Assembly: GCA_026014495.1 (NCBI GenBank)
Contig: JAOZIF010000080.1
Coordinates: forward strand, 1 to 37,590
Reading direction: 5' to 3'
DNA: 37,590 nt
Source of the DNA: Candidatus Bathyarchaeum sp.
Lineage (GTDB): Archaea; Thermoproteota; Bathyarchaeia; Bathyarchaeales; Bathyarchaeaceae
A program made the position numbers and the translations under genes. Every line of letters starts with the position of its first letter. Position 1 is the stretch's first letter. The notes below the pieces were generated by a model that was given only the letters and a program-made list of their open reading frames with translations, did no database searches and was not told the DNA's origin. Shown in pieces: positions 518 through 37,510 of this stretch.

Positions 518-826
518 TTGGAAAATAAAAGAAAGAAAAAAATTTGTTTTACATTAGTAAGAACACTTGATGGAAAGTATGTGCTCGATACTGAGAAATG
601 CCGTTGGGCACAGATTAAAAAGTTTGATTTAGGTATTGAAGATGTGGAGTTTGAAATTAAAGATAGTTACGTTGTATATGCCTCTAAATTCAACTCTGAA
701 TATGCCGAGAAAGATTTGTTTTCATTATCTCCTGCAGAAGAAAAGATAGCAGATGACTTAGCTAAAATGCTTATCGTCATAAAAAAACGTCATCCAAATC
801 TATTTAATTCTGGTAATAATGACTAA
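518..826 (+). CDS. Hypothetical protein, 102 aa
   Basis: Starts 3 nt after the AbrB-like stop and overlaps the next ORF by 8 nt, an operon-like packing. No recognisable motif. Confidence 0.65.
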   Translation: MENKRKKKICFTLVRTLDGKYVLDTEKCRWAQIKKFDLGIEDVEFEIKDSYVVYASKFNSEYAEKDLFSLSPAEEKIADDLAKMLIVIKKRHPNLFNSGNND

Positions 827-21652: not shown

Positions 21653-22833
21653 TTGTTCTCCTTCTCCATAGCCGCATCCAATGCCTCTACTACTTTGTCA
21701 ATTTGCGGCTTTTCGATAACCAACGGCGGTAGGAACCTTACAACGTTTCTTCCAGCATCCAAAACAAGAACGCCGCTATTCATGCAGTCCATCAAAATAC
21801 TGTAAACGTCAAAGCGCATCTCCATGCCAATCATTAGACCTAAACCGCGAACTTCTCGAACAATGTTATATTTCTCCTGCAAAGCCTCTAGTTTACCTTT
21901 GAAATATTTTCCAAGAGTTGCTGCACGTTCCGCAAGTTTCTCCTCAACTAGTACCTCTATTGCAGCACTAGCGGCAGCACAAACCAAGGGATTACCGCTA
22001 AAAGTGCTAGAGTGTTCTCCACGCTGAAACGCTGCCATAACTTCCTCTTTTGCAAACGTTGCTCCCATAGGCAAACCGCCTGCAACAGACTTTGCAAGAC
22101 ACATTATATCAGGAACCACGTTCCAGTGTTCACAGGCGAAAACTTTTCCTGTACGACCAAAACCAGTTTGTACCTCATCAAAGATTAGTAGAACATCTTT
22201 TTCGTCACATATTTCTCGCAGTTCTGGAAGAAAATCGTCTGAAGGCAGAAGAATTCCTCCCTCGCCCCTGATTGGTTCCACGAGAATCGCGGCAGTCTTG
22301 TCCGTAATAGCAGCCTTGATTTTTTCCAGATTGTTTGGAGGAACATGTTTAAAGCCCGGAACCAAAGGCATGAACGGTCCACGATACTTCTTTTTCCATG
22401 TTGCAGAAAGCGCGCCCATAGTCTTACCGTGAAATGCGCCCATCATCGCGATTATTTCCGGTTTACCTGAAGCTTTTCTGGCAAGTTTGATTGCACATTC
22501 AACTGATTCGGCGCCACTGTTAGCCAAAAATACTCTGTCCATGCCTTTAGGTGCTAGTCCAATAAGTTTCTCTAGAAGTATTGAACGGGAATCGTTATAG
22601 AATGATGCGTGGCATGCAATGAGTGTTTCAACCTGTTTTTGTACTGCTTTTACAACTTTTGGGTGGCAGTGACCAACAACGGCTACTCCGTAGCTGCCTG
22701 TGCAGTCTATGTATTCGTTGCCGTCAATGTCCCAGACTAGGGCTCCTTTGCCTCGTGTTAAAACTAGGTCTCTTTTGGCGAAAGTTTGTGCCATAATTTT
22801 TTCTTCAAGGTCAATGATTTCTTTTTTATTCAC
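21649..22833 (-). CDS. lysJ: [LysW]-aminoadipate/glutamate semialdehyde aminotransferase, class III
   Basis: NSGAESVE, FHGKTMG, EPIRGEGG, DEVQTGFGRTG, AKSVAGG and TFSGNP motifs. Confidence 0.92.
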   Translation of the reverse strand: MNKKEIIDLEEKIMAQTFAKRDLVLTRGKGALVWDIDGNEYIDCTGSYGVAVVGHCHPKVVKAVQKQVETLIACHASFYNDSRSILLEKLIGLAPKGMDRVFLANSGAESVECAIKLARKASGKPEIIAMMGAFHGKTMGALSATWKKKYRGPFMPLVPGFKHVPPNNLEKIKAAITDKTAAILVEPIRGEGGILLPSDDFLPELREICDEKDVLLIFDEVQTGFGRTGKVFACEHWNVVPDIMCLAKSVAGGLPMGATFAKEEVMAAFQRGEHSSTFSGNPLVCAAASAAIEVLVEEKLAERAATLGKYFKGKLEALQEKYNIVREVRGLGLMIGMEMRFDVYSILMDCMNSGVLVLDAGRNVVRFLPPLVIEKPQIDKVVEALDAAMEKENK

Positions 22834-23632
22834 TGCTTATCACCGTACCGCCTTCATGCTTTAATGCCGAAGAAATTGGAGTTTTCCTGACGCCAGAACA
22901 AATGACAACTTCGCCAACGCCGTTTTTGAGGGCTTCTTTAGCAGCGTAAACTTTTGTTATCATGCCGCCTCCGATTTTTTTGAGTTTACTCTCGACGTCA
23001 TCAACACATAACTCGGGCACCACTTTGTCATTAAACATTAAGCCTTCAACATCTGTTAGTAAAACCAGCTTGTCAGCCTTCAAAGCCCCAGCGATGTTGG
23101 CTGCGGTTCGGTCAGCATCTACGTTTAGTGGTTCAAACTCTTCGCTAACGGCAACAGGAGAGACCAGCGGAACATAACCGTTATCCAGTAACAACTTTAG
23201 TAATGAAGCGTTTACTTGGTTGACTTTTCCTGTGTATCCGCCATCGATAACTTGTTTTCTTCCCTGCTCATTAACTACAATTAGTCGCTTTTTTCGTTCT
23301 GCCCGCAAAAGATATCCGTCCAGTCCTGAAAGCCCAACAACAGGTATCTCCTGTTTTTGTAGTGCAGAAACAAGTTTCTTGTTTATTTTGCCTGCCATAA
23401 CCATGGTGAATATTTCCATGGTCTCTTTGTCTGTGTACCTGCTGCGAAAGCCAGTAGGCGAAAACACGAACTTTTGTTCCTTGCCCAGTTTTGAGGCTAC
23501 CTCGGTTACGCCTTTTCCTCCGCCATGTACCAGAACTAGTTGGTGTTCAGAGAGAACACTCTTTATGTCAGAAACGATTTCGGGTGGCACCTCTTTGAGG
23601 ATGCTCCCGCCAACCTTAACTACAATCAGCAT
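22826..23632 (-). CDS. lysZ: [LysW]-aminoadipate/glutamate kinase
   Basis: VVKVGGS, VHGGG, SRYTD, GYTGK, LNVDAD and GGMITK motifs. Confidence 0.93.
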   Translation of the reverse strand: MLIVVKVGGSILKEVPPEIVSDIKSVLSEHQLVLVHGGGKGVTEVASKLGKEQKFVFSPTGFRSRYTDKETMEIFTMVMAGKINKKLVSALQKQEIPVVGLSGLDGYLLRAERKKRLIVVNEQGRKQVIDGGYTGKVNQVNASLLKLLLDNGYVPLVSPVAVSEEFEPLNVDADRTAANIAGALKADKLVLLTDVEGLMFNDKVVPELCVDDVESKLKKIGGGMITKVYAAKEALKNGVGEVVICSGVRKTPISSALKHEGGTVISSE

Positions 23633-23641
23633 CTTTTTTTA

Positions 23642-24694
23642 TCACATCGGATGATAACCTTGACATTCTAGCCCAGTTTGTTCGTCAAACCCGAGCATAA
23701 GATTCATGCACTGTACGCCTTGACCAGATGCTCCTCTCATAAGGTTGTCAATAGCAGAAAACGCAATAATCCTGTTGGTGCGTGGGTCCAATTCAAAGCC
23801 AATGTCAACAAAGTTTGTTCCCATTGTGATTTTGGGGTCGGGAAGCTGATATGGGCCTTTCTTGAATTTGACGAAGCGTATGAATTGCTCGTTTTGATAC
23901 ATGGACCTGTAAAACTTCCATACGTCTTTTGTGTCTAACGGCTCTTTTAGAAATGCATGAATTGTGGACAGTATTCCCCTGATCATGTTTACTGCATGGG
24001 GAGTAAAGCAGACTGTTACTTTTTCGTCAGTTAGCAAGTTTAGTTCCTGCTCAACCTCGGCTACGTGACGGTGATTGTTTACTTTGTATGGTCTTACACC
24101 GCCTGCCCTTTCAGGATGATGCGAAACAACAGTTGGTTTTGCACCAGCACCTGAAGAACCAATTTTCACGTCAGCAACTATCCTGTTTTTTTCTATGGCT
24201 CCTGCCTTTACAAGAGGTGCTAATCCCAGAATCGTGGCTGTAGACATGCAGCCTGGGCACCCAATTAGTTTTGCTTTCTTGATTTCTTCGCGGTGGAGTT
24301 CAGGACAGCCATAAACTGCTTCCTGCAACAGGTCTGGATGAGTGTGTTTCCATTTATACCACCTGTCGTAGTCTTTTGGGTTTTTCAGACGATAATCTGC
24401 ACCCATGTCGATAATTTTTACTCCTGTTTCAAGAAGTTGCGAAACTATTTCCAACGATTTGCCATGAGGCATTGCAGTAAACACTAAGTCACAGTTTTCT
24501 GCAATTTGGGAAATGTTCGGAGGTGTGAACTTTAGTTGTGTTGCACTTCTGAGGTTTGGGTGAACGGTGAAGATGAATTCTCCGGCATTTGCACGGGATG
24601 TTATTGTTGTTAATTCAACTTTTGGGTGGGGAAGTAGTAGCCTTGCTAGCTCTCCGCCCACGTATCCTGAGCCGCCTATTACTCCAACCTTCAT
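23642..24694 (-). CDS. lysY: [LysW]-aminoadipate/glutamate-phosphate reductase, ArgC-like
   Basis: IGGSGYVGGEL, DMGADYRL, YGCPELHR, PGCMST (catalytic Cys), IDNLMRGASGQ. ATG at 24694 follows GGAGAG; the ORF-track start at 24805 runs into lysX. Confidence 0.94.
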   Translation of the reverse strand: MKVGVIGGSGYVGGELARLLLPHPKVELTTITSRANAGEFIFTVHPNLRSATQLKFTPPNISQIAENCDLVFTAMPHGKSLEIVSQLLETGVKIIDMGADYRLKNPKDYDRWYKWKHTHPDLLQEAVYGCPELHREEIKKAKLIGCPGCMSTATILGLAPLVKAGAIEKNRIVADVKIGSSGAGAKPTVVSHHPERAGGVRPYKVNNHRHVAEVEQELNLLTDEKVTVCFTPHAVNMIRGILSTIHAFLKEPLDTKDVWKFYRSMYQNEQFIRFVKFKKGPYQLPDPKITMGTNFVDIGFELDPRTNRIIAFSAIDNLMRGASGQGVQCMNLMLGFDEQTGLECQGYHPM

Positions 24695-24708
24695 CTTTTT
24701 GCTCTCCT

Positions 24709-25890
24709 TTATTCGGAATCTATTATGCTCTGGGCGCCTTTTAGCAGTGCCTCTGCTATGTTTATGCCCGCAGCCAACCTTGTTTGTTCCCAGAACTCGG
24801 GACAAGCATTAGTTTCATGGAACATGATGTTGTGTTTGTTCTTTTCCATGTTCTCTTCAATGACTTTCTTGATGTTCTGGTAAGCTTCTTGGTTCTTGTA
24901 GTTTTCAAAAGCCGCTTCCAGCTTCTTGTTCCATTCTGGAAAGTCTGTTCTTTTAGTCTTGTCACGCTTTACGTTTTTCACGGCACCAAAAGAAGGCTCA
25001 AGTTTGTCGAACTCTCCTTTAAGGTACTCATCATCAATGTGTTTATTGTTGCCAACATCAACCATGGCGTCAAAGGCTAATAGGTATGCTTTGCTGTCTC
25101 CACCCATTGCTGCGCCACATTTGGCTGAAATGTCTCTGATATGCTTGGGCAAGTTTACTCCAATAACCATGTTGCCCAAGAACGTGTTTGTCCTAAAATC
25201 TTTGAATCCTGCCCGTGCCAGCGCTGTGGGGTAACAGTATGGTTCCTTTCCGTCCTCTTTGGTGACTATTATTCTCAAGTCATAGAACCATTTTTGGACA
25301 AGATTTTGAGCAAGAACTCCTACAGGATTAATTATTGAGGGTTCAACTTCCCTAAGAATTGTTACTAATTCTTCGCGTTCTTTAGCGAGCTTAACACTTT
25401 TTCCATGCGTGCCCGCATCTGGTTTAACTACAATATTATTGACAAGCTCTTTTTCCAACAGGTCAGCTATGTCGTTTTCGTTATGTATTTCGCGTCCATC
25501 TAACGTTTTTTCGTTAGAATCAACTGGAACATAGACTGTGTCAGGAATCCTGATTCCAGCTTGCCAAAAATGAAGCAAGGACCTTAATTTGCTAAAGCAG
25601 GCGTATTCTACACACTGCGGATTTATCACATGTTTACCGAATGCTTCCAGAACGTTGGCTGCAAATAGTCTTCTGTTTTTGCTTTGTGCACGATTTAGCA
25701 CTACTTTGATGTCTTTTAGTGTGTTTGTGTAATCTTTTCCTTTAGTTCGAAGCTTGTAACCGTTTCCATCAAATCGAACTGCAACTTTTCGGAAAGGAAT
25801 GTAAACTAGGTCTATTCCCATCTCTTCTGCAGTTAGGTTGATTCCTTTTTCATCGGTTTCGGAGCTTTCAAATAAAATACCAATACTCAT
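24709..25890 (-). CDS. lysX: Atypical LysX/ArgX-type ATP-grasp ligase with a large insertion, 393 aa
   Basis: VLNR, VINP, KPDAGTHG, DLRI, FRTN, AFDA and HETN..PEF motifs, located between lysW and lysY. Asp274 and Glu359 are 85 residues apart. Confidence 0.8.
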   Translation of the reverse strand: MSIGILFESSETDEKGINLTAEEMGIDLVYIPFRKVAVRFDGNGYKLRTKGKDYTNTLKDIKVVLNRAQSKNRRLFAANVLEAFGKHVINPQCVEYACFSKLRSLLHFWQAGIRIPDTVYVPVDSNEKTLDGREIHNENDIADLLEKELVNNIVVKPDAGTHGKSVKLAKEREELVTILREVEPSIINPVGVLAQNLVQKWFYDLRIIVTKEDGKEPYCYPTALARAGFKDFRTNTFLGNMVIGVNLPKHIRDISAKCGAAMGGDSKAYLLAFDAMVDVGNNKHIDDEYLKGEFDKLEPSFGAVKNVKRDKTKRTDFPEWNKKLEAAFENYKNQEAYQNIKKVIEENMEKNKHNIMFHETNACPEFWEQTRLAAGINIAEALLKGAQSIIDSE

Positions 25891-26001
25891 CGCTGTAATT
25901 TCATCCTCGCTTCAAATGTTTATTATGTTCATGGTGTTTCTCGGTTTACTTCTTCTTTTTTGTTTCGCATGTAAACAATAAAAAGAAATAATGAGGGGAA
26001 C

Positions 26002-26178
26002 CTACTCTCCCCAATCTTCTCCTTCAATTCCAAGCTCTTTAAGTTCGACGCAGTCTCCCTTGTTTTCAGTCACTTCTAGTTCAAGACCGCAGCTTGGGCA
26101 GCTTAGAATCTCTCCTTTCATGACGTCATCTGGGACTTCAATTTCTGCGTCGCAGTCGGGACAGTTGGCTTTCTTCAC
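26002..26178 (-). CDS. lysW: LysW amino-group carrier protein, 58 aa (absent from the ORF track)
   Basis: Hand translation: MKKANCPDCDAEIEVPDDVMKGEILSCPSCGLELEVTENKGDCVELKELGIEGEDWGE. Two CxxC pairs and the C-terminal EDWGE signature; GTG start preceded by GAGGTG. Confidence 0.97.
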   Translation of the reverse strand: MKKANCPDCDAEIEVPDDVMKGEILSCPSCGLELEVTENKGDCVELKELGIEGEDWGE

Positions 26179-26231
26179 AACTTACACCTCTTTGGTTTAA
26201 AGTGAGCCATTATAAAAAATGTTGCTGTTTA

Positions 26232-26415
26232 TAAGAATTTCGGAGTATTAGCTGAGGGTTTTGCAGTTTTTCCAACTTATTATACGAAATCCGTAGGATT
26301 GGTGCTGTAACCGTCAAGCAACTCTTGCCCAACATATCCGAAGTTACGGTGAGAAAAAAGGGAGCCAAGATACGGAAACCGTTGCTAACTTACCATAATT
26401 TGTTCAGAAATCGTT
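26232..26415. promoter_or_regulatory. Array of Lrp/LysM-type operators in the lysW-lrp divergent region
   Basis: TAAG-AATTT-CGGA 26232-26244, TACG-AAATC-CGTA 26283-26295, TACG-GAAAC-CGTT 26371-26383, TTCA-GAAAT-CGTT 26403-26415. Confidence 0.6.
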
Positions 26416-26454
26416 AAATTTTTCCGTAACTGTAGTATAGTGAGGACAAAGAAG

Positions 26455-26865
26455 ATGGACGATATAGACAAGGCGATAATCGAAATTCTAAAGCATGATG
26501 GCCGAGCCACATATAGCGACATTGGAAAAAGAATTGGCTTATCTGAGGGTGCTGTTCGCAAGAGAATCAAAGCCCTTGTTGACTCGGGCGCAATACGAAG
26601 ATTCACTGTCAAGGTTGGGCTCACAGAAGGAGCCGAAGCAATTGCTTTGCTTTCGGTTGACCCATCTTTGCCAACTTCAGAGGTTTCCAAAGCACTAAAA
26701 CAGTTCTCTAACGTGGAAACCGTCTATGAAATCACGGGCGAATACGACATCGCTGTTACCATATCTGGCTTGAACATAACCGAAGTTAACGAGTGCCTCG
26801 AAGAGATACGGCGCCTTACGGGTGTTGCTAACACAAACACAATGATTGTTCTGCGTAGCTGGTAG
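26455..26865 (+). CDS. lysM: Lrp/AsnC-family regulator, LysM-like, divergent from lysW
   Basis: MDDIDKAIIEILKHDGRATYSDIGKRIGLSEGAVRKRIKAL HTH and RAM domain (YEITGEYD). The symbol rests on synteny with lys genes. Confidence 0.8.
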   Translation: MDDIDKAIIEILKHDGRATYSDIGKRIGLSEGAVRKRIKALVDSGAIRRFTVKVGLTEGAEAIALLSVDPSLPTSEVSKALKQFSNVETVYEITGEYDIAVTISGLNITEVNECLEEIRRLTGVANTNTMIVLRSW

Positions 26866-26887
26866 GCTTTCTTTTATAACATCAAAT

Positions 26888-26958
26888 TACGTTTTCAGAA
26901 ACAGCAGTAATCTTTTCGTATTCTACACAACCTCTTTTTACATAAAGTATATATATTT
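26888..26958 (+). promoter_or_regulatory. Homocitrate operon promoter with upstream Lrp-type sites
   Basis: TACG-TTTTC-AGAA 26888-26900, half-site CTTTT-CGTA ending at 26920, TATATATA at 26948-26955. Confidence 0.5.
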
Positions 26959-27022
26959 GTGCGTTTTGTATTCTTCCGAAATCTATTTAGTAAAAACAGT
27001 GTGAAAAGGAAGGCTCACCAAA

Positions 27023-28261
27023 TTGGAAAACGAATATGTTAACGAACAGGGGCAAAATCTACTACAAAAACTAAAAAGAGAAGGCGTTCTTCCAAGCCCC
27101 TACAATTTCGCTAACTACAAAGCCCCCTCCCTAGACGAATACATAGTTCACGATAGCACTCTACGAGAGGGAGAACAAACCCCCGGCGTTATATTCAGTA
27201 TAGAAGACAAACTGAGAATCGCCAAAAAACTAGATGAGGTGGGAATACCCCAAATAGAAGCTGGGTTCCCCGCAGCCTCAGAAAAACAAAGAAAATGCGT
27301 TGAAGCATTGGTTGACATTAACCTAGATGCACAACTTTCCTCTTTTGCCCGCGCAAAAAAGGAAGACATTGATGCAGTGGCAGATGTGGGAGCCGACGGC
27401 ATAGTAGTGTCTTTGTCTATTTCGCCCTACCACAGGGAGTACAAATTCAAGGGCATGAGCAAAGAAGCGTATCTAGAGAAGCTTGAGGAGCACATCAGCT
27501 ACGCAGAAAGTTATGGACTCTATGTTATTTACAGCGCAGAGGATACTACCCGAGAAAACGATCTGGATTTCTTGAAGACTGCATACAAAACTGCAGAAAA
27601 AGCAGGAGCAGACCGTGCAAGAGTAGTTGACACGCTGGGATGCGTAAGCCCAAACGGTATGGCGTATCTAGTCAAAGAAATAGGAAGCGAACTAGACATT
27701 CCAATAGAGGTTCACTGTCACAATGACCTCGGATTAGCTCTGGCTAACTCGTTAGCTGCAATAGAAGCTGGAGCATCAACAGTGTCAACGTCCGTTAACG
27801 GCTTAGGTGAACGAGCTGGAATAACAATGACCGAAGAGATTATTCCTGTTCTGCATATGCTGTATGGAACCAGCATCTTTGAGATGAATCAGCTAACTTC
27901 TTTAGCTGACCTTGTTCAGCAGATTTCGGGCATAAGTATGCCTCCTCATAAACCATTAACTGGAGCTAACGTAACTGCTCACAGTTCAGGAATACATCAG
28001 CATGGTGTTCTTGTTAACCCCACGACATACGAATTTTATCCGCCCAGAATGATGGGACAAAAACGAAAAATCTACATCGACGAACTAGGTGGCAGGCACG
28101 GAATCATATATGTTGCAAAAGAGCTTGGAATAGAAATCTCTGATGAGACTGCACGAAAGGTTCTTGAACGTGTAAAAGCATCCTTTTCTTCGGGAGAAAG
28201 GCGTAGTTCCTATACTCCAGATGAAATTAAGCAACTAATTGATGAAATCCAAGCGTGTTGA
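27023..28261 (+). CDS. Homocitrate synthase (DRE-TIM LeuA/AksA family, no C-terminal regulatory domain)
   Basis: HDSTLREGEQTPG, IEAGFP, SAEDTTR, DTLG, HCHNDLGLALAN, NGLGERAG, HSSGIHQHG; adjacent to lysWXYZJK. Confidence 0.8.
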   Translation: MENEYVNEQGQNLLQKLKREGVLPSPYNFANYKAPSLDEYIVHDSTLREGEQTPGVIFSIEDKLRIAKKLDEVGIPQIEAGFPAASEKQRKCVEALVDINLDAQLSSFARAKKEDIDAVADVGADGIVVSLSISPYHREYKFKGMSKEAYLEKLEEHISYAESYGLYVIYSAEDTTRENDLDFLKTAYKTAEKAGADRARVVDTLGCVSPNGMAYLVKEIGSELDIPIEVHCHNDLGLALANSLAAIEAGASTVSTSVNGLGERAGITMTEEIIPVLHMLYGTSIFEMNQLTSLADLVQQISGISMPPHKPLTGANVTAHSSGIHQHGVLVNPTTYEFYPPRMMGQKRKIYIDELGGRHGIIYVAKELGIEISDETARKVLERVKASFSSGERRSSYTPDEIKQLIDEIQAC

Positions 28262-28266
28262 AAAAG

Positions 28267-29505
28267 ATGCCATCTACAATAACTGAAAAAATTTTGGCAA
28301 ATGCTTCACACAAAAAAGAAGTGTCTGCAGGGGACTTTGTGGTAGCAGACGTAAGCTATGCAATGGCTCACGATTCAACTGCACCCTTAGCAATCGAGGG
28401 CTTTAGTAAAATCGCAGACAAAGTCTTTGACAATGACCGCGTAATAATTGTGTTTGACCACTTCTTTCCTGCGCCAACAGTAGCTGGAGCTACGTTGCAT
28501 CAAAAATCAAGAAAATTTGTAATGGACCAAAACATTTCAGGGTTTTTTACTAATGGTGTTTGTCACCAAATTTTGGTTGAAAAATTTGTTTCTCCCGGAG
28601 ACGTAGTTGTTGGTGCTGATTCGCACACGTGCACTGAAGGAGCTTTGGGTGCCTTTACTACTGGTTTGGGTTCAACAGACATTGGGGGAGTTATGGCTAC
28701 TGGAAAATGCTGGTTCAAAGTTCCTGAAAGCCTAAAATTCAATTTGACTGGCAAAACAAAGAAGGGCGTCTACGCTAAAGACGTTATTTTGAGCCTTGTT
28801 GGCGATGTTGGTGCTGCTGGTGCTCTTTACAAGGCTTGCGAGTTTACTGGCGACTATGTGAAGGATGCAACTGTTGCTTCGCGTTTGACTTTGTGTAACA
28901 TGGCTATTGAAATGGGAGGCAAAAACGGGGTAATTGAAGCTGACCAGAAAACTCTTGATTTTCTTGGTGGACGTGTTGGAAAAATCTTCAAGAGCGACAA
29001 GGATGCAGTCTACGCTGACACTTATGAGATAGATGTTGGAGCGGTTGAGCCTCAGGTTGCTCTTCCTCCTGTAGTGGATAATGTAGAGCCTGTTTCTGCG
29101 GTTGTAGGAAAACCTATAGACCAAGCCTATTTGGGAACATGCACTAACGGGCGACTAGAAGACATTGAGGTTGCAACAAAAATACTTAAAGGCAAAAAGA
29201 TTGCCCAAAATGTTCGGCTCCTAGTTACTCCTGCTTCACAGGACATTTACTTTGCAGCCCTCAAGAATGGGTACCTTCAAGCTCTTGTAGATGCGGGTGC
29301 AGCTGTTTGTAATCCCACCTGTGGACCTTGTGTCGGTAGGCACGGTGGAGTGTTGGGTGAGGGCGAGGTTTGTCTTTCAACCCAGAACCGAAACTTCACT
29401 GGTAGGATGGGCGACCCGTCAGCGGAGATTATTTTAGCTTCTCCAGCAACTGTTGCGGCTTCGGCTTTGGCTGGAAAGATTGTTGACCCGAGGGATTATT
29501 TGTGA
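28267..29505 (+). CDS. Homoaconitase / 3-isopropylmalate dehydratase large subunit
   Basis: TITEKIL, DHFFP, GVCHQ, GADSHTCT.GA, LCNMAIEMG, GTCTNGR, CGPCVG and STQNRNF.GRMG motifs. Confidence 0.92.
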   Translation: MPSTITEKILANASHKKEVSAGDFVVADVSYAMAHDSTAPLAIEGFSKIADKVFDNDRVIIVFDHFFPAPTVAGATLHQKSRKFVMDQNISGFFTNGVCHQILVEKFVSPGDVVVGADSHTCTEGALGAFTTGLGSTDIGGVMATGKCWFKVPESLKFNLTGKTKKGVYAKDVILSLVGDVGAAGALYKACEFTGDYVKDATVASRLTLCNMAIEMGGKNGVIEADQKTLDFLGGRVGKIFKSDKDAVYADTYEIDVGAVEPQVALPPVVDNVEPVSAVVGKPIDQAYLGTCTNGRLEDIEVATKILKGKKIAQNVRLLVTPASQDIYFAALKNGYLQALVDAGAAVCNPTCGPCVGRHGGVLGEGEVCLSTQNRNFTGRMGDPSAEIILASPATVAASALAGKIVDPRDYL

Positions 29506-29987
29506 AAGTATGGAAGTTTGGAGACGACATAAACACGGATGTTATCACCCCCGGAAGATATACTGTAACCACAGACAAGAAGCGGTTGGGTGAGATAGCA
29601 TTCATAGAGTATCGTCCAGAATTTGGGAAAGGCGTCAAAGAAGGCGACATAATAGTTGCAGGAAACAATTTTGGTTGTGGCTCTTCTCGTGAGCACTCTC
29701 CTGTTGCGATAAAGGCTGCTGGAATCAGTGCAGTAATTGCCAAGTCTTTTGCTCGTATATTCTTTAGAAACTCGATAAACATTGGTCTTCCATTGTTTGT
29801 GTCTGAGGATGCGGACAAAATTGATGACGGCGACGAAGTTGAAATTGACTTTAAAACTGGCGAGATTAGCGACAAAACAAAGGGCATAGTTCTTAAGGTT
29901 AAGCCGTTGCCAGAGTTTATGCAAAAGATTGTTGATAAAGGCGGTTTGGTTGAGTTTTTGCGGAGTGGTGGTTATGACAACGTATAA
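29502..29987 (+). CDS. Homoaconitase / 3-isopropylmalate dehydratase small subunit
   Basis: KFGDDINTDVITPG, GNNFGCGSSREH, SFARIFFRNSINIGLP motifs. Confidence 0.93.
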   Translation: MKVWKFGDDINTDVITPGRYTVTTDKKRLGEIAFIEYRPEFGKGVKEGDIIVAGNNFGCGSSREHSPVAIKAAGISAVIAKSFARIFFRNSINIGLPLFVSEDADKIDDGDEVEIDFKTGEISDKTKGIVLKVKPLPEFMQKIVDKGGLVEFLRSGGYDNV

Positions 29988-30969
29988 GTTGGCGGTTATT
30001 CCGGGTCCTGGAATCGGCGAAGAGGTTACCTCTGAGGCTGTCAGGTTACTTGAGAGTACTGACCTGAGTTTTGATTGTAGTTACTTTGAGATTGGCTATG
30101 AGGTTTTCAAAAAGACGGGTACTCCTGTTCCTGAAGATGTTTTGGCTGGTGTGCGAAAGACTCAGGCTTGCTTGTTTGGGGCTACGACTACTCCTGTTGG
30201 TGTTCCGGGATACAAGAGTGCGATTATTACTTTGCGGACAGCGTTGGGTTTGTATGCTAATGTTAGGCCTGCTAAAAGTTATCCTAACCAGAAAGGCATG
30301 AAAGATGTTGATTTGGTGATTGTTCGGGAGAACACTGAGGGCATGTATAGTGGTTGGGAGTTTGAGTTGCCTGATTCTGCTTATACTGTTAGGGTTATTA
30401 GTCGTAAAGCGACTGAGCGTATTACACGGTTTGCTTTTGATTTGGCTATGAAGCGCAACAAAAAGGTGACTGTGGTTACTAAAGCGAACGTGCTACGCAA
30501 GTCTGACGGTCTGTTTCTTGAGGTTGCACGCCAAGTCGCACAGGATTATCCTGACGTGGAAATGGAAGAAGCGTTTGTTGACGTTACAGCTATGAGGCTC
30601 ATTTTGAAGCCTAAGATTTTTGACGTGATTGTTACATCCAACCTTTTTGGAGACATTCTTTCTGATGAGGCTGCAGGTTTGGTTGGAGGGCTAGGTTTAG
30701 CGCCCAGTGCTAATATTGGCGCAGATTATGCTTTGTTTGAGCCTGTTCACGGTTCTGCTCCTAGGCTTGCGGGAAAGGGAATTGCTAATCCTATGGCTGC
30801 TATTTTGGCGTCTAAGATGATGCTGGATTATCTTGGCGAAAACCGTTGGGCTGAACGTATTGAAAACGCTATAGTAAACGTGCTAACTGAAGGAAAAGTT
30901 TTGACTCCTGACCTTGGAGGCTCTTCGTTAACAAAGCAGGTTACAGACGCGATAATAGATGCGTTGTAG
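29974..30969 (+). CDS. Homoisocitrate / isopropylmalate dehydrogenase family enzyme
   Basis: LYANVRP, IVRENTEG.Y, VTKANV, NLFGDILSDEAAGLVGGLG, FEPVHGSAP, ANPMA. ATG at 29974. Confidence 0.92.
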   Translation: MTTYKLAVIPGPGIGEEVTSEAVRLLESTDLSFDCSYFEIGYEVFKKTGTPVPEDVLAGVRKTQACLFGATTTPVGVPGYKSAIITLRTALGLYANVRPAKSYPNQKGMKDVDLVIVRENTEGMYSGWEFELPDSAYTVRVISRKATERITRFAFDLAMKRNKKVTVVTKANVLRKSDGLFLEVARQVAQDYPDVEMEEAFVDVTAMRLILKPKIFDVIVTSNLFGDILSDEAAGLVGGLGLAPSANIGADYALFEPVHGSAPRLAGKGIANPMAAILASKMMLDYLGENRWAERIENAIVNVLTEGKVLTPDLGGSSLTKQVTDAIIDAL

Positions 30970-30977
30970 CCTATAGT

Positions 30978-33902
30978 TCAGTCCTTTTTTAGTGTTGCCC
31001 GTTTGTGTAGTGTGGTATTGATTTTTGTTAGTGCTGGGTTGAAAATCTGTTTTCTGTGGGCTATTGTTGCTGCGGTTGCTGCCAGTAATAAGGGAACAAG
31101 AACCCACGCTATATACTCGGATAACACTTGGTAACTGTCCGGTTGACCGTAAAGTTCCTCGGTTGTGATGGTGTTTTCCATGTTGTCTTGTGTCAGTATA
31201 TTGTATGTTACGTTTGTGCCGTGGGTAAACTCGGGAATAATTCCGCTCCAGATGTCGCCTTCTATGTTTGTCATTTCTGTAACTGTCCATGTTTCGTTGC
31301 CGTCAGTGTAATTCAGTGCCACCCAAGCAACTCCACTTAACTCGTCAGTTACTGTGGCGTTAACTATTACCCCGTCTTCTAGCGTTCCATTAGCGTTAAC
31401 TGGAGCCTGAACCACATCCACTATGCTTGGAGGCGTAGTGTCAACAGTAAACCATACCGTGACAGACTCGGTCATGACGCTGCCCGTGTAGTTAGCATGA
31501 ACAGTTAAATGGTGAGTCCCATCTGCAAGACTATACAGGGCTGTTGCGTTTTCTGCGTCTACAATTGTTTGTTCATCCAAGCTGTAACCAAGATAGTTGC
31601 ATGTTTCGTTTTTTGTGAACGATAACAAGATGTCCGCTGTGTTGTATGTTTTGTTCTCGGGTGACAAGATAGACATCTCCACGGGAGCAGGAGCAACCGT
31701 GAAATAAACTGTTTCTGAAGAGCAGACGTTTCCCAGCACATCTTCAACAAAGACTGTGACGTTGTGTGGTCCCTCGGGTAGTCCTGTCAAAGTTGCGTTA
31801 CCGATAACCGTTACGTTTTCTTGTCCATCCAAACTGTACGCAGTCCAGACGTAGTCTTGATTTACTGTGTATACAAGAGGAACGTCAAGTGCGTTGTAGG
31901 TCATGTTTTCTGGAGACAACACCGAAACTGCAGTAGAATCATTTTCTGGAGTAAACACGGCAGTCAAAACTGTGTCATTGTCCACGGTAACAATTCTCAC
32001 TCGGTTGGTGTCGCCATCGTCAAGCCAATGAGACCAAACGTATCCATCTTGAATTTCAGGCATCACAACAGTGTATGTCCCGTCATGAACAGTAACAGAG
32101 CAGGGAGTTAACTGAGATTCACCGTCAATCTCAAACATGATTCCATCTATAGGCAAAGATGCCACAGCAAGTTCATTGCTCTCCAAAATGCTTTCGGAAA
32201 CACACTCGTATGCCGCCTGATAATAGAGACGGCCTTGACCATACTCATGAGTGAAAGCAAAAACATAACCTGAGTCCCACAGCGCCACAACTTGAGTGTT
32301 GTTGCCCATTGACGAAACTGAAGCAGCAGATTTACTTTCTACGCCCAATAGACGTTCATCAACAGAAAGCGATGTGCCAAATGGATTATCAGAAACAAGG
32401 TGTGAATAGCCGCCGACGTTTATGTAATAGTTAGCCCCAAACCAGTCACTTATTGAACTCAAACCGAACCTGTATCCATCAAATTCTGACCCTTCAGCAC
32501 GATAAGGCCACATGTCTTTGCAGTATACTGTAAAGTAGCAAGGAACTCCTGTTAGAACAACTACGCCGCCGCCATCAGACAAGTAATCAGCGATAACTGA
32601 TGCATGTTGGGGTTCAACAGCCCAAAAGGCGTCAATGACAACAAGGTCATAATTTGTTAGAGTTTCAGGTATGTCGCCTGCAAAGTCAACATTGAAGCCT
32701 GCCTGTTCAAGGGCGTATGCTACTGAAAAACGGCGGTTGTCCATGTCTGATTCAGTAGACCATGGGTTCCAATCAGTGCCGTCGGTAAGATGGTGGGCAA
32801 GCCAGTTGTCTTTCCAGTTAATGAACAATGCAGAATTGCCGTTTTCAGCAGCCCATCGGGCTCCGCCTCCAAGAAGTTCTAAAGATGCTGGTACGGATGC
32901 TTCACTATTTTGTTCATCTGTTGTCGGCGCTAGATTAACTTTGAATGTTGCGGTTGCTTTGTTTCCCTGCTCGTCAGTAGCTTTCACTTGGTAACTTCCG
33001 TTGGTTTGGTTCAGGACGCTTATTATGCATGTGAAGTTGCCGTAGCCATCAGAAATGAGTGGGCTTGGAACTGTAGGTATCAGAATGTTGTCCCATGTGA
33101 CAGATATTTTGGAGTTTGGTGCAAATCCTGAGCCCACAATTGTTGTTGCTGCTATTCCTTCTGTGGGAACCAATTCAAGCTTTGTGTCTACTTCTGGACC
33201 AGAGAATATTTTCACGTCGTCAAAGTACACTGTAGCCTCGTTGTAGCATTGACTGACAGAAAACGCTTCGATTCCATAAGAAGGAAAATCTGCTGTTTCG
33301 CCTGAAGTTGTGGTTACGGGCAAGTTGTCTGCTCGTAGTTCTCCGTCAACCCAGACAGAGTATGTTTCGTTGGTTCGGTTCATAACCAGTTTGATGTTGT
33401 ACCAAGTGTTTGGTTTATAATTTTGCAGAATTACACTTCCAGTCACCATTGTGCCGTCATAATGAAAAACAACAGGCGCATACTCACACGAAATTGAGGA
33501 GCTTAACTTTTTGGTGAATGACACGCGAGCGTTATCGCGGCTTTGCCCGTTTGTCTCCTCAACTCTAACTGCTACCTCAAACCCGATTACTTGTGAACTT
33601 GAAGTAAACGGTTTAGCAGCAAAAGCCGCCCATCCGTGCAAGCCATGAAGTTTCAAAGAGTTTGTTGGAGAACCACAAACACTGTCTACTATAATCTGTT
33701 GTTCAGTGCCTGCTCCGTTAAACCATAGCTCCCATCCGCCGCCATAAGGAAATGTTCCTGTAGTGTATTTTTCGAAGTTGTCTTCGAACAAAACCTGTTC
33801 TGCTGCCTCTACTTGAGGTATGACCGTGAAAATAGTAGTGGGGACAATTAAAGAACAAATGATGGAAAGTGCGAAACATGATGCAATGTTCAGGTTAGAC
33901 AC
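30978..33902 (-). CDS. Large multidomain surface glycoprotein (LamG/ConA-like, Ig-like, GATase-I-like, PEGA-like, Big repeats, C-terminal TM)
   Basis: Hydrophobic N-terminus ending VEA, repeated VLSPENxTY...YSLD modules, DTTPP, many N-x-S/T sequons, and a C-terminal LSEY plus TM plus basic tail. The ORF-track start at 33965 overlaps the operator, so GTG 33902 or CTG 33893 is more likely. Domain names are by eye. Confidence 0.75.
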   Translation of the reverse strand: MSNLNIASCFALSIICSLIVPTTIFTVIPQVEAAEQVLFEDNFEKYTTGTFPYGGGWELWFNGAGTEQQIIVDSVCGSPTNSLKLHGLHGWAAFAAKPFTSSSQVIGFEVAVRVEETNGQSRDNARVSFTKKLSSSISCEYAPVVFHYDGTMVTGSVILQNYKPNTWYNIKLVMNRTNETYSVWVDGELRADNLPVTTTSGETADFPSYGIEAFSVSQCYNEATVYFDDVKIFSGPEVDTKLELVPTEGIAATTIVGSGFAPNSKISVTWDNILIPTVPSPLISDGYGNFTCIISVLNQTNGSYQVKATDEQGNKATATFKVNLAPTTDEQNSEASVPASLELLGGGARWAAENGNSALFINWKDNWLAHHLTDGTDWNPWSTESDMDNRRFSVAYALEQAGFNVDFAGDIPETLTNYDLVVIDAFWAVEPQHASVIADYLSDGGGVVVLTGVPCYFTVYCKDMWPYRAEGSEFDGYRFGLSSISDWFGANYYINVGGYSHLVSDNPFGTSLSVDERLLGVESKSAASVSSMGNNTQVVALWDSGYVFAFTHEYGQGRLYYQAAYECVSESILESNELAVASLPIDGIMFEIDGESQLTPCSVTVHDGTYTVVMPEIQDGYVWSHWLDDGDTNRVRIVTVDNDTVLTAVFTPENDSTAVSVLSPENMTYNALDVPLVYTVNQDYVWTAYSLDGQENVTVIGNATLTGLPEGPHNVTVFVEDVLGNVCSSETVYFTVAPAPVEMSILSPENKTYNTADILLSFTKNETCNYLGYSLDEQTIVDAENATALYSLADGTHHLTVHANYTGSVMTESVTVWFTVDTTPPSIVDVVQAPVNANGTLEDGVIVNATVTDELSGVAWVALNYTDGNETWTVTEMTNIEGDIWSGIIPEFTHGTNVTYNILTQDNMENTITTEELYGQPDSYQVLSEYIAWVLVPLLLAATAATIAHRKQIFNPALTKINTTLHKRATLKKD

Positions 33903-33946
33903 CTCTAACAACACAATGAAGTGTCTGTGTTGTAAAAAGGGTTTTT

Positions 33947-33996
33947 GTAAATGTTTCTTGACCAATAATTTAATGCATTAGTCAAACTTTCTTGAC
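33947..33996 (-). promoter_or_regulatory. Tandem GTCAA-N6-TTGAC operator pair, gene 30978-33902
   Basis: In gene orientation: GTCAAGAAAGTTTGAC (33996-33981, extended perfect arms ATTAGTCAA/TTGACTAAT) and GTCAAGAAACATTTAC (33962-33947), followed by AAAAACC-CTTTTTAC. Confidence 0.8.
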
Positions 33997-34090
33997 TAAT
34001 ATTTTGTATAAAATAAAACTTAATTTTGTGTTTAATATTTCCACTAAAGCGTCAAAAAATATTAAAACATTCTGGTTGAAAAAAAGACGT

Positions 34091-34462
34091 TTAGTGTCTT
34101 CCTTTGTGTCTTTGGTTTCTTTGGCTTCTGGTTTGTTTTTGTCGCCAGTCCCGTTTTCTTTGTGTTTCTATGCGTTCTCTTGAGAATTCGTAGTGCTTGG
34201 AACCTCGGTTTCTGTAGTCGTCTAGTTCTTGGTAAAAGCTTGAGTAGCTCATCTCGTCGTTAGAGAGTGCTACCAAAATGTCGTTTACTTCAGCTCTAGT
34301 TTCTGATGTATCTAATGTATCCCATGTTTTAGAATAAGCGAGATAAGCAGCTTGAAATTTAAAGTCGGATGGTTTGTTGTTTGGTAATTTTGTTATTTCT
34401 TCGGTTTGTGTTTCTTCTGGTTGTTGGGTTTCTTCGGTTTGAGGCTTCGTTTCTTTAGTCAT
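34091..34462 (-). CDS. Hypothetical protein, 123 aa, acidic N-terminus and basic C-terminus
   Basis: Clean ATG-start ORF with plausible composition; no recognisable family. Confidence 0.7.
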   Translation of the reverse strand: MTKETKPQTEETQQPEETQTEEITKLPNNKPSDFKFQAAYLAYSKTWDTLDTSETRAEVNDILVALSNDEMSYSSFYQELDDYRNRGSKHYEFSRERIETQRKRDWRQKQTRSQRNQRHKGRH

Positions 34463-34634
34463 AACTTTCTATACCCTGAAACTGATGGCAATACTACACT
34501 CGGCAACAATATAAATACCTATCTAACATCCGCGAAAACACATTTATAACCCAAAAAATCAAAAGAAATAAAAAATGGTGCTATTGTTAGGGTTAAAATC
34601 TTTTTGTGGTGTCCTAACTTGTTGTTGAAGTTTT

Positions 34635-34685
34635 GTCAAGAAACATTGACTGACCTGTATTTGTCGTAGGTCAAGAAACCTTTAC
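34635..34685 (+). promoter_or_regulatory. Tandem GTCAA-N6-TTGAC operator pair, gene 34732-35970
   Basis: GTCAAGAAACATTGAC (34635-34650) and GTCAAGAAACCTTTAC (34670-34685), followed by AAAAAACC-TCTTAAC. Confidence 0.8.
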
Positions 34686-34731
34686 AAAAAACCTCTTAAC
34701 TGATGATTCTAGAACACATTTGGGGGACGAA

Positions 34732-35970
34732 TTGGTGTCGTCTAAAAAGTTGTTGTTTTCCAGCATAGTTGTTCTTGTTTTGCTTAGTTTTCTTTTAGTT
34801 ACTTCAGTTAAAGCGTCATCGGAAATGTGGAACCAACTTTACGGAGGATCAGAATATGACTTTGCTTATTCGATTATTGAAACATCTGACGGAGGCTTCG
34901 CAATAGCAGGTTGTACTGGCTCTTTTGGTGCTGGAGGAGGTGATTTTTGGTTAATTAAAACTGACGAGTATGGTGATGTGGAGTGGAACAGGACATATGG
35001 CGGAACAGGTGTTGACTGTGCATACTCATTGATTGAGACGTCTGACGGGGGATTCGCATTAGCTGGTGTTACTGACTCGTTTGGTGCAGGTGGTAATGAT
35101 TTTTGGTTAATCAAAACTGACTTTTTTGGGAACATAGAGTGGAACCAGACCTATGGTGGATCAGATTCAAACATTGCTTACGTGTTGGTTGAAACGTCTG
35201 ATGGAGGGTACGCTTTGGCGGGTTCTTCGGGGTCTCCGCTATATTTTCCTATTGGCGTTGGAACCACCGATTTTTGGTTAGTGAAAACTGACGCTTATGG
35301 GAATATGGAATGGAACAAAACATACGGGGGACCAGAAGATGAAGTTGCTTACTCGCTGGTTGAGACTGCTGACCGAGGACTTGCATTAGGTGGTTACACA
35401 GAATCTGGTGGTGAATCAGGTCATTTTTGGTTAGTTAAAACGGATGTATCTGGCACCGTGGACTGGAACCAAACCTATGGGGGTTCAAAGTCTAATTATG
35501 CTTTTTCGTTAGTTGCAACATCGGATGGTGGTTTCGCTTTAGCTTCAACTAATTTTTGGTTGATTAAAACGGATGCATATGGAACTGTGGAATGGAACTA
35601 TACGTACGGGATAAAATATGATCACATAGTTTATTCTATGGTTGAAACTTTTGATGGAGGATTCGCTTTAGCTGGAGGTGAAAATGGTTTCTGGTTGGTT
35701 AAGACTGATGCCTATGGTAACATGGAGTGGAACCAAACGTACCAAAGATCAGAATGTGATCGTCCTTACTCTTTAATTCAGACTTCTGATGGAGGATATG
35801 CTTTAGTTGGCGATACTATTAATCTTGCAAGTTCAGATGTGTGGGTAATTAAAGCAAATGAAACTGGCATTATTCCAGAATTTCCTTCAGGGATAATATT
35901 GCCTCTTTTGTTGGTTGTCACTGTGTTTGTGATCGTGTTCAAAAAGAAGCTGTTCCATCAAAAATCTTAA
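34732..35970 (+). CDS. Secreted seven-repeat (probable beta-propeller) protein with PEF-CTERM-like anchor
   Basis: Signal peptide ending VKA, seven WNxTYG...ETSDGGFALAG...FWLIKTD repeats, C-terminal IIPEFPSGIILPLLLVVTVFVIVFKKK. Start TTG 34732 or GTG 34735 after GGGGG. Confidence 0.85.
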   Translation: MVSSKKLLFSSIVVLVLLSFLLVTSVKASSEMWNQLYGGSEYDFAYSIIETSDGGFAIAGCTGSFGAGGGDFWLIKTDEYGDVEWNRTYGGTGVDCAYSLIETSDGGFALAGVTDSFGAGGNDFWLIKTDFFGNIEWNQTYGGSDSNIAYVLVETSDGGYALAGSSGSPLYFPIGVGTTDFWLVKTDAYGNMEWNKTYGGPEDEVAYSLVETADRGLALGGYTESGGESGHFWLVKTDVSGTVDWNQTYGGSKSNYAFSLVATSDGGFALASTNFWLIKTDAYGTVEWNYTYGIKYDHIVYSMVETFDGGFALAGGENGFWLVKTDAYGNMEWNQTYQRSECDRPYSLIQTSDGGYALVGDTINLASSDVWVIKANETGIIPEFPSGIILPLLLVVTVFVIVFKKKLFHQKS

Positions 35971-36088
35971 GGTATGTAATGTTTAATTAACCCACAGGAC
36001 AGAACACCTACTTGTATTATTTGACCTATGTTGATACTGTTCTACCAATAGTTCTTGGAATTTAGGTGATAAATTCCGTTTGAACATC

Positions 36089-37408
36089 TTAACTAGATTG
36101 AACCTTATTGTCGATTTGATGTTTTGGTGAAAATCGTTTTTTGTAGAATAATGCTGCTGATGTTGCTATGACAAACAACGGTAGAATAACTCCTGTTGGA
36201 AACTCTGGGATGTAATCTCCGTGGGCGTTAACGGTGGCAAACCAAATTTTGTATTCTGTTTCATCATCTGTGGGTTTTGTTGTTCCTGTCAGCGCATAAT
36301 CTCCATTATCTGTTTGTAAGACAAAAAGAGCAGTACTGTCGCCTAAACCTAGGTATGTGCTGTTCCATTGGATGTTTCCGTTAGTATCTATTTTTATCAG
36401 AAACATGTAGTTGCTCAAGCCTGGAAAGCTGTTAAGGGAGCTTGTCCACCCTGAGACCATGTACCCTTCGTCATTTGTCTGAATCATACTGCTTGGTATT
36501 GCTGGTTCGCTAGGAGCCCAAGTCATGTTCCATTCTGTGTTACCGTCTGAATCTACATGAATCACCCAGATATCTGAAGAATCAACTATGCCTCTACTTG
36601 CGTAACCAGCTAATGTGTATCCATCGTCACTTGTTTGAATAACAAACTGCAATAAATCACGACCTCCCTGTTCATAGGTTTTAGTCCACTCGACATCGCC
36701 TTCTGCATTTGTTTTTATGAACCAACAGTCATAGAATGTGTAATTACTGAAAGAATTTGTTGACCCTATTATCGCGTATCCTCCATCACTTGTTTGGGTT
36801 ACTGAATATCCCTCAGCTGACCCCAATTCTCCATATGTTTTATTCCACTGTATGTTACCTGTGGAGTCAGTTTTAATCAACCACAAGTCTTCAGTTGAGT
36901 TTGCGTCTGTGGAGTAGCCCGTCATAACGTATCCGTTATCGCTTGTTTGTATCACAGAATTTGCTACTTCTGCTGTTGCTTGGCCATATGTTTTGTTCCA
37001 TTGCACATTTCCAGAGGCATCAACTTTAACTAACCAAAAATCGTTGTCACCTGCACCAAAAGACTGAGTTTTGCCCACCATAGCGTATCCACTATCACTT
37101 GTTTGAATCATGTCCGTTGCAACGTCTGCTTCTGCTCCACCATATGTATAGTTCCACTCTACTGTTCCACTTGAATCAACCTTAATCAACCAAAAATCAG
37201 CATTACCTGCACCAAAAGAATATGTGTTCCCAGCGATAACAAACATTTCATCCTCACTCTCAACAATGCCAACCGATGTATCATTTAATTCTCCACCATA
37301 CAATTCAAACTCTGTAGCTGACGAAGACTCGGCATAGGCACCTGAAATGAACATCAAAAACAAGTTAACTGTAAGAAACGTCGGAATTAGCAACTTGTTT
37401 TTAATCAC
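36089..37408 (-). CDS. Paralogous secreted seven-repeat protein with PEF-CTERM-like anchor
   Basis: Signal peptide ending AYA, seven WNxTY...QTSDxGY...FWLIKxD repeats, C-terminal YIPEFPTGVILPLFVIATSAALFYKKR. GTG at 37408 after GGGGG is preferred to 37426. Confidence 0.85.
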   Translation of the reverse strand: MIKNKLLIPTFLTVNLFLMFISGAYAESSSATEFELYGGELNDTSVGIVESEDEMFVIAGNTYSFGAGNADFWLIKVDSSGTVEWNYTYGGAEADVATDMIQTSDSGYAMVGKTQSFGAGDNDFWLVKVDASGNVQWNKTYGQATAEVANSVIQTSDNGYVMTGYSTDANSTEDLWLIKTDSTGNIQWNKTYGELGSAEGYSVTQTSDGGYAIIGSTNSFSNYTFYDCWFIKTNAEGDVEWTKTYEQGGRDLLQFVIQTSDDGYTLAGYASRGIVDSSDIWVIHVDSDGNTEWNMTWAPSEPAIPSSMIQTNDEGYMVSGWTSSLNSFPGLSNYMFLIKIDTNGNIQWNSTYLGLGDSTALFVLQTDNGDYALTGTTKPTDDETEYKIWFATVNAHGDYIPEFPTGVILPLFVIATSAALFYKKRFSPKHQIDNKVQSS

Positions 37409-37459
37409 ACATTTTCCCCCACACATAAAATGCGTTATTTAATGAATAAAACTATTTTT

Positions 37460-37510
37460 GTCAAGGTTTCTTGACTTACGAACGATACATAATGGTCAAG
37501 ATTTCTTGAT
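37460..37510 (-). promoter_or_regulatory. Tandem GTCAA-N6-TTGAC operator pair, gene 36089-37408
   Basis: In gene orientation: ATCAAGAAATCTTGAC (37510-37495) and GTCAAGAAACCTTGAC (37475-37460), followed by AAAAATAG-TTTTATTC. Confidence 0.8.

Follow-up and report, generated by a model that had tools for sequence, protein, structure and literature searches.

Why should three surface-protein genes, lying on both strands of one archaeal contig, share the same paired palindrome upstream of their start codons? The genes lie in a 37,590-nucleotide (nt) stretch of Candidatus Bathyarchaeum sp. (contig JAOZIF010000080.1 of assembly GCA_026014495.1; hereafter the window), and all three encode secreted proteins with a C-terminal membrane anchor, one annotated at 995 amino acids (aa) and two beta-propeller proteins of 416 and 445 aa. 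The Bathyarchaeia are among the most abundant archaeal groups in sediments, and to our knowledge almost nothing is known of their gene regulation. A preliminary description of this DNA had placed six copies of a 16-base pair (bp) dyad, GTCAA-N6-TTGAC, in front of the three genes in pairs 34–35 bp apart, and had proposed that they form an apparently undescribed operator through which an activator encoded elsewhere co-induces surface proteins. All six sites were found exactly where they had been placed, on both strands, each with 0–1 mismatch to GTCAAGAAANNTTGAC and with pair distances of 34, 35, and 35 bp. Across the window, seven matches to GTCAAGAAANNTTGAC (up to two mismatches) were obtained versus 0.71 expected, and no shuffle gave seven.

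A dyad associated with surface-protein genes across the genome

Proteins closely homologous to one of those encoded in the window carry the NCBI label Candidatus Bathyarchaeum sp. The genome that includes the window (G000; 2.19 Mb in 196 contigs, 41% G+C, with the window as contig C52) contains 24 exact and 32 one-mismatch copies of GTCAAGAAANNTTGAC, i.e., 56 sites, and the bare core GTCAA-N6-TTGAC occurs 33 times versus 2.5 expected. Sites with two or three mismatches were distributed as background. A genome scan, set beforehand as the test of a surface-protein regulon, bore the proposal out: 51 of the 56 sites fall within the quarter of the genome outside long open reading frames (ORFs; p below 1e-11), and genes with a PEF-type C-terminal tail are enriched among those downstream. 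Specifically, 18 of the 32 genes of this genome fitting the PEF-tail pattern carry a site (odds ratio 167, p 5e-27), and three more are covered via an operon or a miscalled start, bringing the count to 21. Within the 35 site-bearing genes, 30 encode a signal-peptide-like N-terminus and 25 are additionally anchored at the C-terminus, with the non-surface members including a radical S-adenosylmethionine (SAM)/SPASM gene, a polyferredoxin-like membrane protein, and a regulator-type gene. We consider it very likely that the dyads are a transcription-factor operator defining a surface-protein regulon. The motif had been presented as apparently undescribed, and the literature covered here yielded no paper on it; nor was anything relevant found there on the regulation of PEF-CTERM proteins or on the DUF7347 domain discussed below.

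Two other loci carrying the module deserve mention in their own right. At C193:37298-38667, a short ORF and a radical-SAM/SPASM gene lie downstream of a tandem module with 45-bp spacing, next to a paralogous radical-SAM/SPASM gene, which may constitute a peptide-maturation unit in the regulon. At C65:9202-9479, a perfect tandem module with the promoter signature described below is separated from the next gene by 226 nt in which no convincing ORF was seen, and its product may be a small protein or an untranslated RNA; where that next gene has orthologs in other genomes, the module is missing. The two archaeosortase/exosortase genes of the genome (PF09721; C161:10206-11024, 119 bits, and C59:17101-17901, 40.7 bits) were considered as regulon members and discarded, as both contigs are without a site at up to two mismatches in the genome-wide scans.

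Helical phasing and conservation in related genomes

In this genome the sites are grouped into 23 tandem modules; within each, the copies point the same way, and their starts are 34, 35, 44, or 45 bp apart and at no other distance. When 22 related genomes were searched with any spacing of 18–48 bp allowed, the core pair was detected 184 times versus 0 for a reversed control pattern, and the 75 pairs listed were spaced by 24–25 bp (10 pairs), 33–35 bp (54), or 42–45 bp (11), and nothing else. The spacing of about three helical turns proposed from the window does occur, but it is one of three phasings, and seven promoters of this genome have a single site. Eight homologous promoters of the 995-aa family were compared across the genus; both sites and an A5-N3-T4 element are kept, the flanks have diverged, and the spacers are either 34/35 or 45 bp, i.e., they differ by an indel of one helical turn. 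This one-turn switching is strong evidence that the proteins are bound on one face of the DNA and touch each other.

The exact motif is abundant in the sampled genus genomes (all 18 and all 6, with 2–64 copies each). It was absent from the sampled sister genera of the Bathyarchaeum family. A second family of the order has it in four genera, and a sample of ~180 genomes covering the remainder of the class gave control-level counts, so that in these samples the motif is confined to one order. Arrays of the second family are often triple (24 plus about 35 bp, as at loci L089-L093 of genomes G191 and G162) and are likewise found upstream of secreted, C-terminally anchored proteins.

Site structure and promoter anatomy

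The 56-site matrix yields the extended consensus ttTTnGTCAAGAAAcnTTGACnAAaa, in which the full site is a ~26-bp palindrome, TTTT-N-GTCAA-N6-TTGAC-N-AAAA, with an asymmetric (GAAA) spacer. The A-run flanking the sites is mirrored by a T-run on the opposite side, as expected from selection by a winged-helix dimer whose wings would lie in the minor grooves on either side. After the site nearest the gene come A5, two or three bases, and a (C)TTTT(A/C) run, and about 30 copies of this composite arrangement were recovered, with the T-run starting exactly 7 nt past the site in 24 of 29 regulon promoters. The A5-NN-(C)TTTT signature was observed in 35 of 1020 upstream regions and is nearly confined to site-bearing promoters. 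It differs from the general TATA word of the genome, TTTAAATA, which is enriched 30–50 nt before start codons; of 29 regulon promoters, no more than two contain a canonical TATA word. At 23 of 30 promoters the A5-NN-TTTT element is abutted by tandem dyads, the other seven being the single-site ones, and start codons typically lie ~45–55 nt past the site, often preceded by GGGGGA or GAGG. We infer that A5-NN-(C)TTTT is a weak transcription factor B recognition element (BRE) and TATA box, whose position would fit a transcription start ~25 nt past the T-run and a short leader.

Two details of the preliminary description changed with this wider sample. The A-run had been read as a core-promoter feature; it is indeed present at the proximal copies, but it flanks nearly every one of the 56 sites, distal copies included. 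Similarly, the GAAA-first orientation of the spacer holds at all three window promoters but at only 12 of 30 promoters genome-wide. Both copies of a module share the same GAAA orientation, and it is the direction relative to the gene that varies: all 12 GAAA-first promoters are tandem, whereas the 18 TTTC-first promoters comprise 11 tandem and seven single-site ones (Fisher p 0.024). The promoter-side half-site, next to the A-run, is mostly TTTAC in GAAA-first and mostly TTGAC in TTTC-first promoters.

The three promoters of the window and their genes

On the minus strand, the 995-aa gene is preceded by a distal site at 33981..33996 (GTCAAGAAAGTTTGAC, 0 mismatches) and, 34 bp from it, a proximal site at 33947..33962 (GTCAAGAAACATTTAC, 1 mismatch), both kept in the eight homologous promoters. 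Directly 3′ of the proximal site, an A5-CCC-T5 element (33931..33946, minus strand), presumably the BRE/TATA, is conserved in the orthologous promoters; its T-run begins 8 nt after the site. The longest ORF reaches 33965 and overlaps the operator. In the orthologs the start codon lies 52–53 nt past the site, and the probable start here is a GTG at 33902, giving a secreted multi-domain surface protein of ~974 aa (30978..33902, minus strand) that is anchored in the membrane at its C-terminus and lacks a PEF motif. The ortholog start is an ATG preceded by GAGG; its position corresponds to a CTG (33893) in this genome, and the in-frame GTG (33902) overlaps the GAGG (33891-33902, minus strand). Noted at the same place is a small hairpin in which GTTAG and CTAAC enclose a six-base loop with the Shine-Dalgarno sequence, and which is found in 4–5 of the eight orthologs with one covarying pair.

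The 416-aa propeller gene, on the plus strand, has its distal site at 34635..34650 (GTCAAGAAACATTGAC, 0 mismatches) and its proximal site 35 bp away at 34670..34685 (GTCAAGAAACCTTTAC), followed by an A6 run and CCTCTTAAC (34686..34700); among the three BRE/TATA-like elements this weak one departs furthest from the canonical form. The gene product (34720..35970, plus strand) is a secreted beta-propeller repeat protein ending in an apparent PEF tail, a membrane helix, and a basic end, probably starting at TTG 34732 or GTG 34735 after GGGGGA. For the 445-aa propeller gene, the distal site is at 37495..37510 (ATCAAGAAATCTTGAC, 1 mismatch) and the proximal one 35 bp from it at 37460..37475 (GTCAAGAAACCTTGAC, 0 mismatches), both on the minus strand, with a putative BRE/TATA, A5-TAG-TTTTATTC, at 37444..37459 (minus strand). 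This gene (36089..37426, minus strand) encodes a secreted beta-propeller protein of the SBBP type (NF047494, E 1.2e-15) that ends in an apparent PEF tail, and probably starts at GTG 37408 after GGGGGA. The PEF motif is visible at the C-termini of both propeller proteins; the TIGR03024 profile scored 17.4 bits for the 416-aa protein, under its cut-off of 23, and gave no match for the 445-aa one.

An A5-6 run and a T-rich element follow the downstream copy at all three promoters, much as the preliminary description had it, and its argument against simple duplication also stands. The two propeller proteins are 38% identical, and the 995-aa protein resembles them only in the C-terminal anchor (E 0.13). 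Because the inter-site spacers of the three promoters are unrelated in sequence, the shared feature is the sites themselves rather than a duplicated promoter. The gene lying between two of these regulon members (34091-34462, minus strand), described at the outset as lacking the motif, has no site of its own, the nearest pair being 172 nt upstream and in the opposite direction; it encodes a highly charged 123-aa protein with no family match. Elsewhere in the window, a divergent gene similar to transcription factor B (TFB; 819-1823, plus strand; PF00382, 39 bits) adds to an unusual set of multiple genes for TFB and the TATA-binding protein (TBP), which is relevant to promoter classes. A set of LysX-type ATP-grasp, homocitrate synthase, aconitase-family, and isocitrate/isopropylmalate dehydrogenase-family genes (20534-30969) fits an alpha-aminoadipate-type lysine route, and, like a Fae-Hps fusion at 3334-4782, is ordinary-looking.

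A candidate membrane-anchored regulator

The preliminary description had placed the regulator elsewhere in the genome, which holds for this window, and had looked to sites in front of a regulator gene as support. One regulator-type gene, G000:C102:6578-7651 (357 aa), carries a single site and A/T element 44 nt before its start; a candidate family can now be named. Its product matches DUF7347 (36 bits, cut-off 27.6), HTH_20 (34.7, cut-off 27), and HTH_5 (30, cut-off 22) in Pfam. A structure model (mean predicted local distance difference test score, pLDDT, 83.7) displays a winged helix (residues 4-89), a membrane helix (102-127), a beta-sandwich (130-318), and a second membrane helix (322-356), and the N-terminal domain aligned over ~95 residues with SmtB, CzrA, HlyU, and BigR in Foldseek (probability 1.00, target TM-score 0.66–0.78). 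Database names of its relatives are either absent or "ArsR family".

Among 67 other genomes of the order, this family (membership threshold E below 1e-24) was detected in 20 of 21 motif-bearing versus 7 of 46 motif-free genomes. Moreover, 17 of 46 family genes from ~25 genomes have a site 38–123 nt upstream, compared to ~0.8 expected, and these include genes of genomes otherwise nearly motif-free: in genome G177, one of only three sites genome-wide is located at a family gene. Since its own genes carry the site, the candidate family would be autoregulated. Paralogues with differing outer domains have a conserved recognition helix (SSHLTYHLENLG or DSGHLSYHLENLG), and comparing it between site-bearing and site-free family genes revealed no discrimination, the helices being alike. 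One paralogue of the candidate, on contig C104, has no upstream site.

Three other candidates were examined, and the first two rejected. A 157-aa winged-helix protein with two membrane helices on C65, 226 nt downstream of a module, belongs to a family that 63 of 68 genomes of the order possess, motif-free ones among them, and a site was seen at 0 of 15 orthologs. A 741-aa "HTH" protein divergent from a module on C42 turned out to be an anaerobic ribonucleotide reductase (NrdD) whose N-terminus carries a winged helix and an ATP-cone, and the module serves the propeller gene opposite. For a DtxR-like gene on C9, 124 nt from a module, the promoter signature faces the opposite gene. As a separate observation, the N-terminal winged helix of the NrdD (G000:C42:4421-6646, locus L002) corresponds to DUF7347.

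Activation, repression, or a special promoter

We favour a reading in which, in Bathyarchaeum and a small number of related genera, a winged-helix factor would bind the 16-bp dyads as a dimer and use them as operators to control a regulon of the cell envelope. One to three sites would be arranged on one helix face, all pointing the same way, at start-to-start distances of 24-25, 33-35, or 42-45 bp, and the copy nearest the gene would abut a fixed, non-canonical core element. Dimers bound cooperatively just upstream of a weak BRE/TATA would help recruit TFB and TBP, and the factor would thereby co-induce ~30 transcription units, mostly for signal-peptide proteins with PEF-type or other C-terminal membrane anchors, including the three window genes. 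The regulator itself would be a membrane-anchored one-component family whose proteins begin with a DUF7347/ArsR-type winged helix and continue through a membrane helix to an extracytoplasmic beta-sandwich and another membrane helix. Dimer binding is suggested by the dyad symmetry and the fold family, and activation by the position upstream of the BRE, where archaeal activators usually bind, together with the weak TATA boxes. Taken as a whole, we judge this scenario probable.

Several observations weigh against parts of it. Eleven of the 32 PEF genes carry no site. The co-occurrence of family and motif amounts to roughly two clade-level contrasts, the genomes not being independent. Genome G191, which is motif-bearing and 96% complete, gave no family match, and seven genomes have the family and almost no consensus sites; a one-mismatch search in these stayed at background, and no variant motif could be defined. 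The candidate, as a membrane protein, could simply be another target, given that the regulon consists of membrane and surface proteins and that the link is made of co-occurrence and self-association, and a membrane-tethered factor would need to reach ~30 scattered loci. The assignment of the DUF7347/ArsR-type membrane family as the regulator remains tentative, and we put it slightly below an even chance. The direction of control is similarly debatable, as ArsR/SmtB proteins are typically repressors and the A-flank of the site overlaps the presumed BRE, so that occlusion is possible.

These last two points are what commends an alternative with the same operator and regulon, in which an ArsR-style repressor, placed as dimers by the BRE, would block TFB and TBP until an outside signal is received: the DNA-binding domain of the candidate belongs to that repressor family by both sequence and fold, and the presumed BRE falls on the A-rich flank of the proximal site. 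Yet the whole dyad sits upstream of the T-run, in no case overlapping that run or the expected start. The core elements are also weak, which is unusual where promoters fire upon release of a repressor, and helically phased tandem sites upstream are the pattern of archaeal activators such as ArnR (PMC6396743). Judging from promoter architecture, the factor is likely an activator rather than a repressor, and repression appears an unlikely competitor.

Two further explanations would dispense with a dedicated regulator of this kind. The composite element might be a special promoter class read by an extra TFB/TBP paralogue, the dyad being an extended basal element; three full TFB genes, the divergent TFB of the window, and at least three TBP genes are available for such a role, and the A5-NN-(C)TTTT element is rigidly spaced from the site and almost exclusive to site-bearing promoters. 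Dyads located 24, 34, or 45 bp upstream nevertheless fall outside known TFB/TBP footprints, distal copies are without a T-run, and dyad symmetry with helical phasing indicates a cooperatively binding dimer, all of which make this very improbable as a full account, although a special pair of basal factors may contribute to the odd A5-NN-TTTT element. Alternatively, the modules could be mobile or duplicated promoter cassettes, or recombination sites. Some are near-identical over more than 60 bp, for instance those on C43 and C97 before paralogous genes, and they occur in both orientations relative to the gene; most promoters, however, share only the dyads and A/T element amid unrelated spacers and flanks, no terminal repeats or transposase are linked, all eight orthologous promoters have one orientation, and in both families the spacers vary in length by steps of helical turns. 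We find this the least credible of the explanations, with hardly any probability left to it.

Comparison with known archaeal regulators

Upstream operator arrays and membrane-bound one-component regulators are known in kind. Against the literature covered here, what is new is the motif, a phasing rule with three steps, how large the regulon is and what it contains, and the way in which the domains of the candidate are arranged. Ptr2, an Lrp-family protein of Methanocaldococcus jannaschii, and TFB-RF1 of Pyrococcus furiosus use paired palindromic sites or a BRE-abutting site upstream of a weak core promoter, and activate through recruitment of TBP or TFB; both are soluble and belong to other protein families. 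We know of no helically phased arrays across dozens of promoters, and of no link to surface proteins, for either. ArsR/SmtB regulators are dimeric winged-helix proteins on dyad operators, but are soluble and mostly act as repressors that metals or redox changes release, with operators that overlap the promoter. By sequence and fold, the candidate has their DNA-binding domain (SmtB, CzrA, CadC, HlyU, and BigR; Protein Data Bank entries 8qkf, 1r1v, 1u2w, 4k2e, and 3pqk). Unlike these, it also has two fused membrane helices and a domain outside the cell, and the sites lie upstream of the core promoter.

A close parallel is ArnR, a membrane-bound one-component regulator whose helix-turn-helix (HTH) domain is at the N-terminus and that exerts positive control over cell-surface structures, via two inverted-repeat boxes just upstream of BRE/TATA (-43 to -84) that are both required for binding (PMC6396743). 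Like ArnR, the candidate has an N-terminal HTH domain (the winged helix at 4-89), inverted-repeat boxes, here putatively bound, stand directly upstream of the BRE/TATA-like element of surface genes, and paralogous regulators share one DNA-binding domain. The boxes differ, GTCAA-N6-TTGAC here versus TCGAC-N5-GTCGA as given for ArnR (PMC6396743). The topology differs as well, since ArnR has a cytoplasmic HAMP/sensor region and two C-terminal membrane helices, whereas the beta-sandwich of the C102 candidate is predicted to be extracytoplasmic between its two helices, and no HAMP profile match was obtained for this protein. Finally, the targets of ArnR are a few type-IV-pilus promoters, compared to ~30 sorted-surface-protein promoters here, in a different archaeal order, and the likeness drawn here is one of layout. 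EarA of Methanococcus maripaludis and Pyrococcus likewise activates a surface structure through several upstream copies of a short motif (PMC6396743, PMC13286277), as with the several upstream copies and surface targets in Bathyarchaeum; there, unlike here, a 6-bp motif occurs four times at one operon, and the regulator is soluble and from another family.

Implications for the Bathyarchaeum cell envelope

The same data allow a bolder and more speculative reading, namely that membrane-spanning sensors, with a beta-sandwich outside and an ArsR-type winged helix inside, read a signal from outside the cell and, while in the membrane, directly switch on most of the archaeosortase-sorted surface proteome. 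Here, paralogues would share one DNA-recognition helix, and phased arrays would stand beside deliberately weak core promoters. We hold this to be possible, yet rather less probable than not; if true, the sensor family would act as the master switch of the Bathyarchaeum cell envelope, in an organism whose cells display a surface layer (S-layer) plus an unexplained outer sheath (PMC10477458). An enrichment culture of Bathyarchaeum exists (PMC10477458), so that transcript mapping and binding assays are feasible.

Overall, the analysis outlines a complete regulatory unit, with a ~26-bp operator, strict helical-phase rules, ~30 target promoters, and a named candidate regulator family. With this candidate, the few known membrane-bound archaeal transcription factors, such as ArnR, would be extended to a new domain layout and a much larger regulon. 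The list of targets covers two thirds of the PEF-tailed surface proteins, and thus offers a route into how Bathyarchaeia remodel their envelope.

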